IMG/VR virus record: IMGVR_UViG_3300045988_106777
Location: 1 to 32,507 of that record
Length of the DNA: 32,507 bases
Source of the DNA: a virus
Direction: 5' to 3' (one strand)
Both the position numbers and the translations under genes were made by a program. Of this stretch, positions 938-12,828 are shown piece after piece. The notes beneath the pieces were generated by a model, which worked only from the letters and a program-made list of their open reading frames with translations, had not been told where the DNA came from and made no database searches. Each line of letters begins with the position of its first letter. Within the stretch, counting starts at the first letter, position 1.

Positions 938-2302
938 CTATAGCCTGTCGACCGCCTCGATGCGCTCTCCCAGCCAGCGCATGACTGGGACTGCCATGCT
1001 GTTTCCGCACGCCTTGTAGCGCAGAGAGTCAGGGCACTCCTCGGAAGGCTTTCCCTTCCACGGGATTCTTGTGTGGTTGTCCGGGAAGCCCTGTAAACGC
1101 TCGCACTCAAGTGGAGTCAGGCGGCGAACTACCGAGTTGATGCCGCTTTCTGCGATCGGCCCCGATTCGTCGGCGCCAATGCCGGAAGTCGCTCCTTGGT
1201 GGTTCTTGAAAGCGACGACTGGCGGGTCTTTGCGAGTGTGGGCGCTGATTGTTCCAGAAACCTCGGTGTCCACGCTCGTGTTCTTCTGCGTGTCGGTCAT
1301 GCACACGAGGCTCTGGTTGTTGACCGTGCTCAGTGTGCCGCTGATTTCATCTTGAATCAATGGTCCTTTGCCACTACCTGGTTTTGCCTGCCCTGTCTCG
1401 GATAAGCCAGCTGTGCATGTCTCACTCTCCTCGTACATAACCGCAGGATTGTGATAGTCGGCAGTGAGTGTCGGTGACTGCTCTACGGCAGCTCCGATGC
1501 CGCCTGACTTTGATCCTTGGTGGTACTTGAACTCCACCGCAGGACGATCAATCGTCGTCAGCGTATACATAGGCTCACCAGGTTCTTGGAAACCGTTCCC
1601 ATTGCCGACGTTCTTAGGCTTGCTCCCGATGATGTTCCCGGCGATTGAGAAGGTATCGTGCTGACTATCGTGGTTTATGCGTCCTGTTCCGCCACCTTGC
1701 GCAACGCAGCGTCCAGAAGCGGCGGCAACGGCTTTCCTCTTTTCTCGGCTCGACGGAGTATCCCAGCACATGCTTTCTGGCTCAAAGAGTACTTCGCAGG
1801 CGCGTGCGTCTCCAAGGTGTCCGACAAGAAAGAGACGCTCGCGTCTTTGGGCCACGCCGAAGAACTGCGCGTCCAGAACTCGCCACGCCAAACCGTACCC
1901 GAGGGCATCCATTTCTCGGAGCAGCTGTCCGAAAGCCGCCCCACCCTCACACGAGAGCGCTCCTTTGACGTTTTCCCACAGGAACCACCGAGGCATAAGC
2001 TCTTGAACACAACGTATGTACTCGAACATGAGTCCAGAAGCTCCCTTAAGACCTTCTCGTTTTCCTGCGATGGAGAAGGACTGGCATGGACTTCCTCCGA
2101 CAACAAGGTCAACTGCTCCATGAATCTCCTTTTTCCAATCTACTTTTGTGATGTCTCCGAGGTTCGGGACGTTCGGCCAGTGCTCGGAAAGCACCGCGCT
2201 CGGGAAGTCGTCTATCTCGCAGAACGCGAGTGGTTCCCATCCGAGCGGTTCCCATGCAAGTGTTGCCGCCTCGACACCGGAGAAGATGCTTACGTACCTC
2301 AT
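938..2302 (-). CDS. DNA (cytosine-5) methyltransferase with an enlarged target-recognition region
   Basis: Motifs FSGVEA (I), GSPCQSFS (IV), ENV (VI), QRRERLF (VIII), RRLTPLECERLQGFP (IX), GNSMAVPV (X). SD GGAGGTGG. ATGA overlap with the upstream HTH gene. Confidence 0.9.
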   Translation of the reverse strand: MRYVSIFSGVEAATLAWEPLGWEPLAFCEIDDFPSAVLSEHWPNVPNLGDITKVDWKKEIHGAVDLVVGGSPCQSFSIAGKREGLKGASGLMFEYIRCVQELMPRWFLWENVKGALSCEGGAAFGQLLREMDALGYGLAWRVLDAQFFGVAQRRERLFLVGHLGDARACEVLFEPESMCWDTPSSREKRKAVAAASGRCVAQGGGTGRINHDSQHDTFSIAGNIIGSKPKNVGNGNGFQEPGEPMYTLTTIDRPAVEFKYHQGSKSGGIGAAVEQSPTLTADYHNPAVMYEESETCTAGLSETGQAKPGSGKGPLIQDEISGTLSTVNNQSLVCMTDTQKNTSVDTEVSGTISAHTRKDPPVVAFKNHQGATSGIGADESGPIAESGINSVVRRLTPLECERLQGFPDNHTRIPWKGKPSEECPDSLRYKACGNSMAVPVMRWLGERIEAVDRL

Positions 2303-8469: not shown

Positions 8470-8961
8470 CTATTCCACCTCCCCCGTAAGCAGTGCGGCA
8501 GCGGCAGCACCGAGGTTGTTACCGAGTGCTTCAACCACCTTTTGCGTCTGTACTCGAACGGTCGTTCCTGTCATCATCGGCGGCTCGAAACGCTCTACCA
8601 TCTCACACCCATCTGGCAACTCACCATCGGCAACAGCAGCTTCAAGAACCAAATCTGGCTTTACGGTGACAAGGCGGTTGAGCGTATCTAATCCGCCATC
8701 GGACGTGCGAAGCCACTCGACTAACTCCTGCGCGTTGGCGATGGATGGAAAATGCCCGACTTTCGGCTTGCTCATTCGCGCCGAGATCGTACCGACCTTC
8801 TGACCGTTCACGGTGAGCTGCTTCTGGGTAACGCCGTTTACCATGAAGTCATCGCGCATCTTAGCGTCCACTTCCTCGCGTACCTGCTTCTCGGCCTGCT
8901 TAACAGCCTTGCCGAAAGCGGTGATGACCGCAAGGCGCTCTTCGTTACTCACGTTCGGCAT
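8470..8961 (-). CDS. Hypothetical protein, possibly Gp157-like
   Basis: Coiled-coil N-terminus and position immediately upstream of the Sak4-like gene. The family call is by synteny only. Confidence 0.35.
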   Translation of the reverse strand: MPNVSNEERLAVITAFGKAVKQAEKQVREEVDAKMRDDFMVNGVTQKQLTVNGQKVGTISARMSKPKVGHFPSIANAQELVEWLRTSDGGLDTLNRLVTVKPDLVLEAAVADGELPDGCEMVERFEPPMMTGTTVRVQTQKVVEALGNNLGAAAAALLTGEVE

Positions 8962-9154
8962 CGCTAACCGCCTCGCAAATAGGCCGTCCTAATAAGATTG
9001 ATGATTCCTCCACCACGGGAAACTCATGCACGTGGCAATCGTCCTCGCCGCCGAAAAGGGCTCCGTTCGCGCCCTTGCTCACGGCAAGCGCCGTCTCCCT
9101 GTCCCTGTAAACGCCAATTGGCGTGTAGCCTTGGCTGACCACGTAAACCTTCAT
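8945..9154 (-). CDS. Hypothetical protein (69 aa)
   Basis: ORF with upstream AGGAGAA SD. Confidence 0.5.
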   Translation of the reverse strand: MKVYVVSQGYTPIGVYRDRETALAVSKGANGALFGGEDDCHVHEFPVVEESSILLGRPICEAVSDAERE

Positions 9155-9161
9155 AATTCTC

Positions 9162-9356
9162 CTAATTTAGATATCTTGACCTGTACAAGCGCACTACCTC
9201 GCGCTCAGCTTCTGACTTTGTCGCATCTGGGCTAACGGTATACAGCAGACGACGCACGCGGACGATTCCTGCTGGGCTGTACCGTTCGTCGTCGGTAACC
9301 TTCGATGCGTACCACGCTCCGTTTTTGCGCTCGACAGACCAACCCATGAATGACAT
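9162..9356 (-). CDS. Hypothetical protein (64 aa)
   Basis: SD AGGAG 5 nt upstream of the ATG. Confidence 0.55.
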   Translation of the reverse strand: MSFMGWSVERKNGAWYASKVTDDERYSPAGIVRVRRLLYTVSPDATKSEAEREVVRLYRSRYLN

Positions 9357-9363
9357 GATTCTC

Positions 9364-9531
9364 CTAGTAGTACATGCCGCTCGGCGCAGTGCCTTCGATA
9401 AGTCCGGCTATAGCTATGAGCGTGACCATCAGGACGACGCAAGCGACCGTCTGGGTTCGCTCGCTCAATCCGTGCCACCACGCGCCTAGGTTCTCGGCTG
9501 CATCGAACAGGCAATTTCCGATATAATTCAT
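9364..9531 (-). CDS. Small membrane protein (55 aa), below the ORF-track cut-off
   Basis: ATG 9531 preceded by AAAGGAGG (9538..9545). The translation MNYIGNCLFDAAENLGAWWHGLSERTQTVACVVLMVTLIAIAGLIEGTAPSGMYY has one hydrophobic helix. Stop TAG at 9364. Confidence 0.6.
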   Translation of the reverse strand: MNYIGNCLFDAAENLGAWWHGLSERTQTVACVVLMVTLIAIAGLIEGTAPSGMYY

Positions 9532-9533
9532 CT

Positions 9534-9598
9534 GAGACCTCCTTTCTGTCTGGTCTTGAGCCGTTTCCCGTGTTGGTAGCCCGTGGAACGGCTTTTTT
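9534..9598 (+). ncRNA. Hypothetical cis-antisense small RNA over the 5' UTR/SD of the 55-aa ORF
   Basis: TATAAT at 9522..9527 (no clear -35). Stem 9535-9539/9552-9556 with the anti-SD in its loop. Plus-strand-only terminator at 9559..9598. Confidence 0.3.
9559..9598 (+). terminator. Intrinsic terminator functional only on the plus strand
   Basis: AGCCGTT (9559-9565) pairs with AACGGCT (9587-9593), with extra CC/GG pairs, followed by T6. On the minus strand the stem is preceded by A5 and has no U-run. Confidence 0.5.
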
Positions 9599-9815
9599 AG
9601 TTTTCATTCATCCAGCGGTCGAACTCGCTCACGCTGATTAGCGCATTGCGCTTACCGTAGGTTTTAAACTTCAAGCGTCCCGCCTTGTGCTCCGCATACA
9701 ATGTGGATCGCGGCACGCCAGAATAGAGCGCCGTCTGACGGACTGTGTACGCCATTTGCGGTTTCAGCCCGGCGGCTATAGCGAATTGCAGCGCTCTGCT
9801 TTTGATATCTTCCAT
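9597..9815 (-). CDS. Excisionase/AlpA-like helix-turn-helix DNA-binding protein
   Basis: YTVRQTALYSGVPRSTLYAEHKAGRLKF resembles MerR-type HTH_17/Xis proteins. SD GGAGG upstream. Confidence 0.55.
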   Translation of the reverse strand: MEDIKSRALQFAIAAGLKPQMAYTVRQTALYSGVPRSTLYAEHKAGRLKFKTYGKRNALISVSEFDRWMNEN

Positions 9816-10376
9816 GCTTCACCTCCTAGAGCCGCCAGCGCGATACTGCCTAGGTACGCAATCAAAAGGGCTATACAAATTTCCTTATGACACGGCAGTA
9901 CCGCGTTCGCGGTTCTATATGGATTCAATGCGCCACAGCGCCATGCGGTACGTATCCTGATTTGCTTATAGGCGGACTGAGAACTAATCGAGATTTACGA
10001 CGTCTTGATTAGCGGATACGCACCACGTGACGCTGTGGCTTTGATATGGGATGCGTGGGATACGCGGTCATTTCCTACCGCGCTACGGCTCTCCACGCTT
10101 ACCGCCAGCCCGTGGGCTGGAATCTTCGTTTCGCCTAGCCAGCACCGGCTAGACTCGCGTATTACGCTGTCCTTCCTTCCGATACCTTGCAGGGCATCGG
10201 CAAAGGCTCTATGCGGTTCTCAAGGGGCGCTATCTCCCTTTGCGTCCCGCTCGCACCGTACTGGCGAGTGTGGTTGGCCCGATCGCAGGAGGCATGATCA
10301 CGTAGAGAGGTTCGTGATTCGCCAGTGCGGCGCGTGCGAAACGCATGTTTGATAAATCAGTGGTTGGATTGGTTAG
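9816..10376 (-). ncRNA. Candidate large structured RNA or cis-acting element (no credible ORF)
   Basis: At least ten perfect or near-perfect 6-11 bp helices (listed in findings). No SD-preceded ORF. The strand assignment is tentative. Confidence 0.35.
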
Positions 10377-10592
10377 TTAGACGTTAGTTTTACTAGCGTT
10401 TGAGCCGAAAAAAATATACTCGTAGTTTTTGGAAAGCAGCGAGCATATCGTCTTGGCTTGAAGAACAGTTGCCCTAGCTGGGTCTGCTTCAATTGCCGCA
10501 TATGTAGGGCGCGAACACCCCAGCTTATCAGCCATAAACTGCTGGGTGTATCCAGCTCGTTTACGCGCTTCTTCCAAAGTTTCGTTTGGCAT
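10377..10592 (-). CDS. Cro-like XRE-family HTH regulator
   Basis: GYTQQFMADKLGCSRPTYAAIE HTH. Divergent from the repressor gene across a 100-bp operator region. SD AAGGGGG. Confidence 0.65.
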   Translation of the reverse strand: MPNETLEEARKRAGYTQQFMADKLGCSRPTYAAIEADPARATVLQAKTICSLLSKNYEYIFFGSNASKTNV

Positions 10593-10629
10593 TTCGTATT
10601 ACCCCCTTTCGGTCTTTCAACTGTTTTGT

Positions 10630-10658
10630 ATGCTAGTTAAACTAGCGTAGCGTGTCAA
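10630..10658 (-). promoter_or_regulatory. Early lytic promoter (TTGACA-17 nt-TAGCAT)
   Basis: On the minus strand, TTGACA lies at 10658..10653 and TAGCAT at 10635..10630, with an exact 17-nt spacer that contains the operator palindrome. Confidence 0.55.
10633..10645. promoter_or_regulatory. Operator palindrome CTAGTT-A-AACTAG
   Basis: Perfect 13-bp palindrome inside the promoter spacer. A related site, TTAGTTTTACTAG, lies at 10384..10396. Confidence 0.5.
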
Positions 10659-10703
10659 CATATTTTTTCGTACAATGTAAAAAAGATTAACGAGGTGTTG
10701 GAT

Positions 10704-11351
10704 ATGGGAATTAGGGAAAATATAATTGAGCTGCGGAAACGCGAAAGATTGACGCAAGAGGAACTTGCAAAAATTGCAGGCGTGTCGCGTGGTGCTGTAT
10801 CTCAATGGGAGGGCGGTTTTTCTGAGCCTCGCATGGGAGCCATCCAGAACATTGCCGACCACTTCGGTATATCCAAGAGCGCGATTATTGAAGATGGTGG
10901 AATGTTTGACCGCATCCCGTCTAATGCGATCAAGCCCACTACAGCAAAACCAGCCTACGCTCCCCTATTAGGCCGCGTCCACGCGGGGGAAGCCCAGGAG
11001 CCTGATGTATTGCAAGACGCAATACCAGTGCCATACGAAATCATCAAGCGACACCCTCAGGGCTACTTCCTCCAGGTGGAGGGAGACTGCATGGATAACG
11101 TCTATCCAGAAGGCTGCTATATCCTCATAGACCCCGAGAAGCGCCCATCAAACGGCTCAATTGCGGTCGTTAGTATTGATGGTGCTGACTACGTAATGCG
11201 CCGCCTGTATCGCGGTGCCAACACGCTGATACTGTCACCTGATTCGCATAACGCCGAATACGAGGATATGGTATTTGCCGCCACCACCGAACATACGGTG
11301 GAGTTTCACGGCACAGTCGTTTGGTTTCAATCGTCAAAGGAGATGGAGTAA
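10704..11351 (+). CDS. cI/LexA-like repressor: XRE HTH plus an S24-peptidase-like C-terminal domain with variant catalytic residues
   Basis: HTH LTQEELAKIAGVSRGAVSQWEGG. Linker with HAGEAQEP. C-domain VEGDCMDNVYPEG...YVMRRLYRG. GAGGTG SD 6 nt before ATG 10704 (the ORF track starts at GTG 10695). Confidence 0.85.
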   Translation: MGIRENIIELRKRERLTQEELAKIAGVSRGAVSQWEGGFSEPRMGAIQNIADHFGISKSAIIEDGGMFDRIPSNAIKPTTAKPAYAPLLGRVHAGEAQEPDVLQDAIPVPYEIIKRHPQGYFLQVEGDCMDNVYPEGCYILIDPEKRPSNGSIAVVSIDGADYVMRRLYRGANTLILSPDSHNAEYEDMVFAATTEHTVEFHGTVVWFQSSKEME

Positions 11352-11444: not shown

Positions 11445-12575
11445 ATGCCACGTTCATCATGGGGAACCAAAACCAAAATCGACAAGAACAAGTGGAGAAT
11501 CCGTTGGTGCGAGTGGGACGGGCTCAATCGCGTTCGCCGCTCAAAGACGCTCTATCCCTGCACCTCGCGTGAAGCGGACGATGAGTTGCGCCGCCTTTGG
11601 CAACTCCACCACCTGCCGCCAAATGAGCGTGTTGTTCCATGCCCGACATTCAAGCAGTGCTGGGATGAATGGTATTTCCCGCAGCTTGAAAAGCAGCTTG
11701 AGACTGGCGATATGTCGCGCAGCACATTCGTCAACTACCGTAGCGCATGGAGGTCAAAGGTCTCGCCGAAATGGGCAAACGTTGCCATGAATAAAGTGAG
11801 AGTTGAAGAATACCAACGTTGGTTGGACAAGTTCACTGCGGCACAGGCTCACGTCTCGCATATCATCATTCTCAATCTCGTCAACTGTGCGAGACTTCAC
11901 GATGTGGACGGCATTTCTTTTATCGATGCAAAATACAAAATGCCGCGCGAAAAGAAAAGCACGGGCGATAGCGGGCTAGAAGTCTACACGGTGGCTGAAA
12001 TTGACAGCATCCTTGAATCGTTGCGAGGTAGTCGCATCGAGGGCGTAGTGATCCTAATGGCTAAAGGCTCATGCCGTGTCGGCGAAGCAGCGGCAGCAGC
12101 GGTGAAAGACATTACGTTTGATGAATACAATGGTCGCACGTACGCCGTATACGACCTTTATCACCAGTATTCTCAGAACAACAGCTTTGAGCCGCTTAAG
12201 ACGGCAGAAAGCCGCCGTCCAATCATCATCCCGCCGCCATGGAGCTTGCGGCTCGCCGAGATAGCAAAGCAGCGCACAGAAGACCAAGAGCTGTACATCT
12301 GCGACAAAGGCACGGGAATGCCGATGGATCGCAAGAGAATTACAGGTGAGTGGCTAAGCTATTACAGGAATGGAACGATTGATTTGCGCTACCTGACCAT
12401 GACCAAATTGCGCAACTCATGGGCCACGGCAATGCTTTGGAAGTACGGCATTCCCGCACAGATGGTTGACAAAATGATGGGTCACGCTTCCAAGAATATT
12501 CTCGGCAAACACTACGACCGCCCCGACAAAGAACTGTTCATCGAGACGGTCGATAAGGCATACTTCGGAAATTAG
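11445..12575 (+). CDS. int: Tyrosine recombinase / phage integrase
   Basis: Box I CRVGEA and box II KLRNSWATAML...MMGHAS...LGKHYDR, with the terminal Tyr. N-terminal SAM-like arm region. Confidence 0.9.
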   Translation: MPRSSWGTKTKIDKNKWRIRWCEWDGLNRVRRSKTLYPCTSREADDELRRLWQLHHLPPNERVVPCPTFKQCWDEWYFPQLEKQLETGDMSRSTFVNYRSAWRSKVSPKWANVAMNKVRVEEYQRWLDKFTAAQAHVSHIIILNLVNCARLHDVDGISFIDAKYKMPREKKSTGDSGLEVYTVAEIDSILESLRGSRIEGVVILMAKGSCRVGEAAAAAVKDITFDEYNGRTYAVYDLYHQYSQNNSFEPLKTAESRRPIIIPPPWSLRLAEIAKQRTEDQELYICDKGTGMPMDRKRITGEWLSYYRNGTIDLRYLTMTKLRNSWATAMLWKYGIPAQMVDKMMGHASKNILGKHYDRPDKELFIETVDKAYFGN

Positions 12576-12792: not shown

Positions 12793-12828
12793 AAAAAAAG
12801 CCCCTCCCCACCAGATGGTGGAGAGGGG
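12793..12828 (-). terminator. Strong intrinsic terminator ending the late operon
   Basis: A 12-bp stem (12801-12812/12817-12828) with a 4-nt loop. The A7 at 12793-12799 gives a U7 tail on the minus-strand RNA. Confidence 0.8.

Follow-up and report, generated by a model that had tools for sequence, protein, structure and literature searches.

A probable large multi-domain structured RNA upstream of an excisionase-like gene in temperate phages of Collinsella and related human-gut bacteria

The window analysed here, i.e. the whole stretch of 32,507 nucleotides of the IMG/VR virus record IMGVR_UViG_3300045988_106777, carries the gene set of a temperate phage or prophage, including an integrase, CI and Cro, Sak4, a primase and a cell-wall hydrolase with an amidase_2 domain. 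A CI-like repressor and a tyrosine integrase face a leftward early operon, in which a cro-like HTH_3 gene is followed by a 561-bp gap, a gene for a 72-aa HTH_17 protein, several small genes and then genes for Sak4, for a nuclease of the ERCC4 type, for a PrimPol/D5 primase and for a C5 methylase. The features around the gap are as follows:

11445-12575, plus strand: tyrosine integrase
10695-11351, plus strand: CI-like HTH/S24 repressor
10630-10658, minus strand: PR-like promoter candidate (TTGACA-17-TAGCAT), a consensus match only
10377-10592, minus strand: cro-like HTH_3 gene, the upstream neighbour of the RNA described below and outside the conserved unit
9822-9826, minus strand: Shine-Dalgarno sequence (SD) GGAGG, within the HTH_17 translation-initiation region 9812-9826
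9813-9815, minus strand: ATG start codon of the HTH_17 gene
9597-9815, minus strand: 72-aa HTH_17 excisionase-fold gene, directly 3′ of the RNA

The candidate promoter would drive cro, the structured RNA and the early operon. Elsewhere in the window, a C-5 cytosine DNA methylase gene (938-2302, minus strand) lies at the distal end of the early/replication region, and a strong intrinsic-terminator-like hairpin (12801-12828, minus strand; 12 bp including 9 G-C pairs, followed by a T-run) is found in the space separating the integrase and amidase_2-domain genes, likely the attP-side intergenic region.

The gap itself (9816-10376), which the initial annotation had described as free of open reading frames (ORFs), indeed holds just two on its minus strand, of 33 and 38 aa, and the ATG of the 38-aa ORF is replaced by CTG in most homologues. 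The plus-strand ORF 10005-10352, noted earlier as lacking an SD, is 115 aa long, has a TTG start and has no match in Pfam or PHROG. Stop-free stretches differ widely in frame and length between near-identical copies, and the variable columns show no codon periodicity (22/30/31 by phase). It had also been envisaged that homologues might carry an intact protein gene here, but no ORF is conserved across the copies. A decayed gene, or any coding reading, was thus rejected for want of a conserved frame, of periodicity and of a family match for the 115-aa ORF, and the structured element sits between two complete genes.

When both strands were folded, as had been advised, the minus-strand RNA reached a minimum free energy of -236.6 kcal/mol compared with -187.9±6.9 kcal/mol for dinucleotide shuffles (z = -7.0; none of 100 shuffles was as good), and the plus strand gave z = -4.0. 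As a control, 561 nt of neighbouring coding sequence on the minus strand (8900-9460) gave z = +0.49. The claim that helices are denser here than expected by chance is therefore borne out, the gap beating its shuffled-sequence control and the coding stretch failing to do so. The strand evidence had been called mixed; this was not upheld, as G·U asymmetry settles on the minus strand, which is the sense of the early operon. In the main-family pair tables G·U is the commonest type in 13 pairs and 15 further pairs show a one-sided change to G·U in some copies, whereas mismatches of the A·C type, equivalent to G·U on the plus strand, occur in 3 pairs only. Because G·U variants far outnumber A·C-type mismatches, the structure is assigned to the minus strand. 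The same strand still falls below its shuffles with DNA parameters (z = -5.0) and replication genes lie downstream, both of which would suit a single-stranded or other DNA-level element, such as an origin or a single-strand initiation site for the PrimPol/D5 primase. However, iterons, tandem repeats and an AT-rich tract are all absent, the element has the orientation of the operon and is joined to a ribosome-binding site, and the 13 predominantly G·U pairs, together with the many G·U variants, fit RNA better. We consider such an element, along with a decayed gene or chance hairpins, barely credible.

Twenty-six distinct near-full-length copies of the element were found in Collinsella prophages and human-gut metagenomes, namely 22 distinct full-length ones that make up alignment A3 and 4 more among L069-L073, which came from contigs encoding more divergent HTH_17 proteins. 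With the flanking 72-aa protein as query, seven IMG/VR contigs were found that carry the element at 81-96% identity, a genome scan with a conserved 20-mer placed it in four Collinsella genomes or metagenome-assembled genomes (MAGs) and in one 'Clostridiales' MAG, and a metagenome scan with an 18-mer added human-gut contigs. Two genome-scan matches (L021 and L027) were discarded as chance 20-mer matches within a coding gene, as were many of the 18-mer matches, also due to chance. Beyond this main family, two divergent lineages (L074 and L080/L081) have the same domain order and lie upstream of HTH_17 homologues with 56-69% identity. L074, whose contig begins inside the element, scores 77 bits with nhmmer, and L080/L081 score 60 bits, over the core only; the two lineages fold independently, with z = -4.0 for L074 and z = -7.6 for L081.

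Wider searches did not extend this set. BLAST of the element and its 6-kb neighbourhood against 50,697 GenBank phage records gave no match, four more exact or degenerate patterns run on IMG/VR returned the same seven contigs or a subset of them, and a covariance model of the core domain D3 (see below) found no copies in related loci that lack the element (L008, L009, L075, L076, L079, L082 and others). The sequence was not found in the first 200 of the 408 supplementary files of a 2021 structured-RNA survey; large-scale surveys of candidate structured RNAs in gut microbiomes and phages concern short motifs, with a mean of 67 nt. The distribution is narrow in the collections searched, with a few dozen copies in three lineages from the human gut and, as far as these collections show, the family is confined to temperate phages and prophages of Collinsella (Coriobacteriia, Actinomycetota) and related human-gut bacteria.

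The consensus structure comprises a closing helix, P1, around five domains, D1-D5, listed here in 5′ to 3′ order of the RNA:

9818-10356, minus strand: the complete structured RNA, with the 5′ strand of P1b at one end and its 3′ strand at the other, delimited by the RNAalifold consensus, pair counts and fold z-score
10361-10363 with 9812-9814, minus strand: P1a
10351-10356 with 9818-9823, minus strand: P1b, UUUAUC (UUUACC in most copies) with GGUGAA
10241-10345, minus strand: D1, a 25-bp irregular helix (10319-10345 with 10241-10267) with two capping hairpins (10298-10317 and 10277-10293)
10222-10240, minus strand: small hairpin (5 bp) past D1 and ahead of D2; the conserved junction CUUGAGAACCGCAUA comes next
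10101-10217, minus strand: D2, multi-branch, with closing helix 10213-10217 with 10101-10105
10053-10098, minus strand: D3, a hairpin and the most conserved core, with asymmetric internal loop GAGCCGUA and covarying stems
9932-10039, minus strand: D4, a long hairpin of 24 pairs (10014-10039 with 9932-9957) with an apical helix of 9 pairs (10004-10013 with 9983-9992)
9827-9917, minus strand: D5, a long hairpin of 21 pairs (9894-9917 with 9827-9850) with an apical helix of 8 pairs (9883-9891 with 9861-9869)

All six local stems and all four long-range pairings of the initial annotation are helices of this consensus, and three long inverted repeats, I1 (D4), I2 (D1) and I3 (D5), were recovered independently. 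The RNA measures about 539 nt here and 530-625 nt in other main-family copies. Its 5′ end lies 20 nt past the stop codon of the cro-like gene, its 3′ end in the ribosome-binding site of the next gene, and the 5′ strand of P1b forms the 5′ border of conservation, just past the stop codon of the variable upstream gene. One P1b position shows the pair types CG:15, UG:5 and UA:1, and, judged by eye from the sequences, L065 and the L069 subgroup can form the same pairing as well, although their flanks differ. The loops of D1 carry CCUCUCU, CCUCCU and CCAACCAC motifs, with similar loop motifs in L074 and L081; D1 is nearly invariant in the main family and is therefore backed by folding rather than by covariation. 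We also note that CCAACCAC is present twice in the RNA, just 5′ of P1 (10357-10368) and at the D1 apical junction (10269-10276), and that ACCAACC/AACCACC motifs resembling it occur in D1 of L074 and L081. The junction CUUGAGAACCGCAUA is kept in L074 and L081.

Within D2, a swappable module is of type A here (about 10169-10212, with hairpin 10179-10200) and of a longer type B in other copies; the two types are unrelated, each folds alone, and type B has four covarying pairs. Further D2 hairpins lie at 10157-10167, 10133-10154 and 10106-10119. The D3 loop AGGAAAUG (10069-10076) is identical in the three lineages and in all copies except L001, which has AGAAAAUG, and a D3 covariance model, R1, detects the core in all three lineages. 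Other conserved single-stranded motifs are the internal loop GAG(A/U)GCCG and, in D2, CCAAGAACG...CAACGAG. Whole extra hairpins are inserted in some copies at two linker sites (about 10040-10052 and 9918-9931; columns 367-403 and 529-552 of alignment A3). One inserted hairpin is built from one or two copies of the self-complementary octamer UUCUAGAA, which in principle could mediate RNA-RNA dimerisation.

Evidence for selection on the fold came from within and between lineages. The RNAalifold consensus on the 22 distinct copies of the main family contains 149 pairs, with 99.4% of cells paired. Divergence in the main family is low, the mean difference being 2.7% in paired columns compared with 14.4% at third codon positions of the adjacent gene. 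Covariation among homologues, which the initial annotation had named as a check, is present in the cross-lineage alignment A4, where 33 of 81 aligned pairs are compensatory on both sides; column shuffles gave 5.5±1.9 such pairs (none of 500 reached 33), and sliding the partners by 1-3 columns gave 2-8. D2 adds 15 compensatory pairs out of 45 across lineages, and per-domain analyses, in agreement with A4, gave 8 of 24 for D4 and 12 of 27 for D5. A pseudogene and chance hairpins are excluded by this covariation, the absence of a conserved frame and the z-scores. The proposal of a large structured RNA thus draws strong support from folding statistics, conservation and covariation across three lineages, and we conclude that the minus strand of the gap very probably encodes a multi-domain structured RNA of ~540 nt, with P1 around D1-D5, that belongs to a previously uncatalogued family.

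The long, nearly perfect helices of D1, D4 and D5 (21-25 bp), all three internal to the operon, invite comparison with RNase III processing sites, such as the hairpins found between or ahead of early genes in T7 and lambda. Cleavage within these helices would detach the cro message from the early mRNA that follows it and determine the half-life of each. For such punctuation, however, single hairpins would suffice, and it leaves unexplained the conserved AGGAAAUG and CCAAGAACG...CAACGAG motifs, the multi-branch D2 and the constant domain order across lineages; we regard it as improbable.

Comparison with catalogued RNAs was negative throughout. Infernal searches against Rfam, suggested in the initial annotation, found no relevant family, consistent with an uncatalogued RNA: cmscan of the whole stretch with the 4227 families of Rfam 15 gave no match at the gathering score, the region 9500-10700 searched at E≤10 gave only a spurious miRNA match outside the element, and the homologues and divergent lineages gave only tRNA and sub-threshold miRNA-type matches. 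ARAGORN detected no tRNA or tmRNA in the window, and the element-bearing loci that were scanned are also without tRNA. A group I or II intron was rejected for lack of an Rfam match and because the element lies between two complete genes; membership in ROOL, GOLLD, OLE, HEARO or raiA, for lack of a covariance-model match; and a known riboswitch aptamer or T-box core, again for lack of an Rfam match. OLE RNA (RF01071) is likewise about 600 nt long, highly conserved and rich in helices, but it is chromosomal, found in Bacillota and associated with Oap proteins. The element represents a new RNA family with no detectable relation to catalogued families.

From its location, the initial annotation had also likened the gap to nutR/tR1 or put. 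As with lambda nut and HK022 put, the element is cis-encoded in the early transcript of a temperate phage, just past the cro/N-side promoter, and its promoter-proximal place in the early operon, behind whichever promoter and immunity module, is what would be expected of a put-like RNA that binds RNA polymerase in cis and confers terminator resistance downstream. Specific support for this antitermination proposal was nevertheless not obtained. The boxA sequence GCTCTTTA, allowing up to one mismatch, is absent from 9816-10376, and the element has no boxB either. Several internal terminators had been noted in this genome; the early operon holds 18 terminator-like sites where 13±4 are expected, which is not above chance, and there is no excess downstream. 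In L080 the element lies behind an opposite-strand gene and not behind a promoter-proximal cro. Known nut and put sites are, moreover, roughly one tenth of the 540-740 nt of the element: HK022 put has two stem-loops and about 70 nt, just past the early promoter, compared with about 540 nt and five domains after cro here, and lambda nut, with its boxA/boxB, is unrelated in size and architecture. A put-like role is thus very unlikely.

Directly downstream of the RNA, the 72-aa protein matches Pfam HTH_17 and PHROG 66 (excisionase/regulator), with TIGR01764 below its cut-off. A PDB sequence search gave no match, and the best PDB fold matches found by Foldseek for its AlphaFold model (pLDDT 84) are the excisionase RdfS and mycobacteriophage Pukovnik Xis, the latter with 1.6 Å rmsd over 50 columns; the Foldseek E-values are only about 0.02-0.1. 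The translation-initiation region of this gene is partly occupied by the 3′ strands of P1b (9818-9823) and P1a (9812-9814).

Linkage between RNA and gene is strict in one direction. In all three lineages, wherever a contig extends into the HTH_17 gene, the RNA is found immediately 5′ of it. What lies upstream of the RNA differs: four or more cro-like genes, unrelated to one another and accompanied by different CI repressors, occur there, L026 (from Collinsella sp. CM84Y_54) and L073 each have an additional small gene, and in L080 the neighbour is encoded on the opposite strand. HTH_17 homologues without the RNA are found in L079, L082 and L083. The immunity region is mosaic (L001-L007, L022-L026, L069-L073), with a recombination border exactly at the RNA 5′ end. 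In L069/L071/L072 the ribosome-binding region is different (AAAGGGGGAGGGAUGAAAG) and the HTH_17 protein is only 68% identical, with the RNA still at 82-87%; by manual reading, these copies nevertheless retain the potential for a helix of UUUAYC with GG(A)UGAA over the start codon.

Some related loci carry other elements in the equivalent position. In L008 (3221-3296) and L075 (312-388), both without the large RNA, a tRNA-Arg(CCU) gene stands in this slot, with the cro-side genes on one side and the HTH_17 homologue on the other; a GC-rich hairpin lies downstream of the tRNA and right before the next ribosome-binding site. Upstream of the tRNA, L075:68-311 contains stretches resembling D1 and the D1-D2 junction (GCCUCCUGGCAUCGG, CUUUGAGAAUCGAAU and CCCCUUGCAAGG), which gave no match with nhmmer or with the D3 covariance model; this stretch may be a reduced or remnant element fused to the tRNA. 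A further prophage has, ahead of its HTH_17-like gene, 735 nt (L009:3707-4441) without a long annotated gene. This stretch shows no similarity to the element in sequence, includes a small ORF with an SD and, judged by only 20 shuffles, folds with z = -5.4; it is possibly another structured RNA at the equivalent place. Finally, between the element and the ribosome-binding site of the third lineage (L080:3890-3960; L081:750-800) there is a GC-rich 11-bp hairpin (GGCCGCCUCCCC...GGGGAGGCGGC) without a U-tract, which could be a terminator or attenuator, or a stabiliser of the RNA 3′ end.

The reading that we favour, tentatively and with somewhat less than even confidence, is that the RNA is a cis-acting leader gating the HTH_17 excisionase-fold gene. 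As the RNA starts 20 nt after cro and ends in the next ribosome-binding site, an early lytic transcript from the PR-like promoter would include it. With the full fold closed by P1, the 3′ half of the SD, the spacer and the start codon would be paired with the 5′ end of the RNA. How the large RNA is folded, which could be set by co-transcriptional folding kinetics or by a ligand or protein, would then govern translation of the xis-like gene and perhaps also the processing or the stability of the early transcript. Excisionase expression would thereby be kept apart from the cro/CI switch, which fits the recombination of the RNA-xis unit as a block behind unrelated immunity modules. The sense orientation of the RNA and its physical joining to the translation-initiation region of an excisionase-like gene speak for such a leader. 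Riboswitch-type leaders are likewise located right upstream of one gene family in the same orientation, with a closing helix over SD and start codon, and just as their expression platforms vary, so does the gene junction of the element, with pairing to the ribosome-binding site in the main family and a separate hairpin in L080/L081. Differently from riboswitches and T-boxes, the element is two to five times larger, has no aptamer match, revealed no mutually exclusive fold and has surroundings that point to no ligand. Repeat I4 suggested that the 3′ strand of D5 might instead pair with the beginning of the coding region, but this pairing was no better than shuffles in any lineage, and a pairing of UAGAGCC in the type-A module with GGCUCUA near the SD (I5) was attributed to chance, since the type-B sequence differs there.

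Several observations weigh against the leader. With its 540-740 nt and five domains conserved over the full length, the element far exceeds the translational leaders known so far in elaborateness; P1, at 6+3 bp, is short, and few events underlie its covariation; and HTH_17 homologues exist without any RNA. In L080/L081, D5 is set apart from the ribosome-binding site by an independent GC-rich hairpin and some 80 nt, and their GACC...GGUC pairing around the SD is also found in relatives that lack the RNA, so the direct link between RNA and ribosome-binding site is not universal.

The same observations bear on a second reading, in which the element is a stand-alone 'ornate' phage RNA acting in trans, as proposed for ROOL and GOLLD, and processed from the early transcript. 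Given the size of the RNA, the L080/L081 hairpin, the tRNA in the slot and the RNA-less HTH_17 genes, we hold this to be nearly as likely as the leader. Such an RNA might self-assemble, bind ribosomes, tRNAs or host proteins, or counter host defence, and its place before the xis-like gene would be the first accessory slot past the immunity switch. Large functional RNAs typically show this combination of size, multiple domains, strong sequence conservation and peripheral hairpins that can be swapped or inserted. ROOL (RF03087) and GOLLD (RF01998), which assemble into homo-oligomeric nanocages, are likewise encoded by phages or prophages, longer than 500 nt and multi-domain, with a conserved core and variable periphery. 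These phage RNAs often adjoin tRNAs (PMC12286853), an association echoed by the tRNA-Arg(CCU) found in exactly the slot of the element in L008 and L075; in L080/L081 the RNA has a strong hairpin of its own on its 3′ side, ahead of the ribosome-binding site, and so do those tRNAs.

However, neither ROOL and GOLLD nor any other Rfam family matched in sequence or structure, even at E≤10, the window has no tRNA, and in the main family no spacer, promoter or terminator separates cro, the RNA and the ribosome-binding site. Possible antisense targets within the phage were at chance level (14 nt or less), and so strict an association with a single gene family would be more usual for a cis element. Differently from ROOL and GOLLD, the host clade here is Coriobacteriia, no tRNA is adjacent in the window, and the RNA runs into the ribosome-binding site of one particular gene. 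That it represents a new class of self-acting large 'ornate' RNA, similar to ROOL and GOLLD, in phages of gut Actinomycetota, with a slot shared with tRNA-Arg(CCU), is possible but rather doubtful. For such a class, the presence of tRNA-Arg(CCU) in the slot of sister phages would hint at a role in translation, tRNA supply or evasion of host defence, possibly via self-assembly.

Only a short list of bacterial or phage RNAs exceeds 500 nt and has extensive conserved structure, namely rRNAs, RNase P RNA, group I/II introns, OLE, GOLLD, ROOL and HEARO, and each such large RNA is a ribozyme, a ribonucleoprotein scaffold or, as recognised recently, a self-assembling nanocage. With the element, an abundant genus of the human gut contributes one more well-supported class, a defined structural target with boundaries, domain map, core and variants in hand. 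The element is situated at a decision point, between the immunity switch on one side and excision and replication on the other. Should it gate the excisionase, as in the leader reading that we favour, prophage excision would be subject to unusually elaborate control by RNA. If instead it acts in trans, the phenomenon known from ROOL and GOLLD would reach the phages of Actinomycetota, where it would be tied to a tRNA slot.
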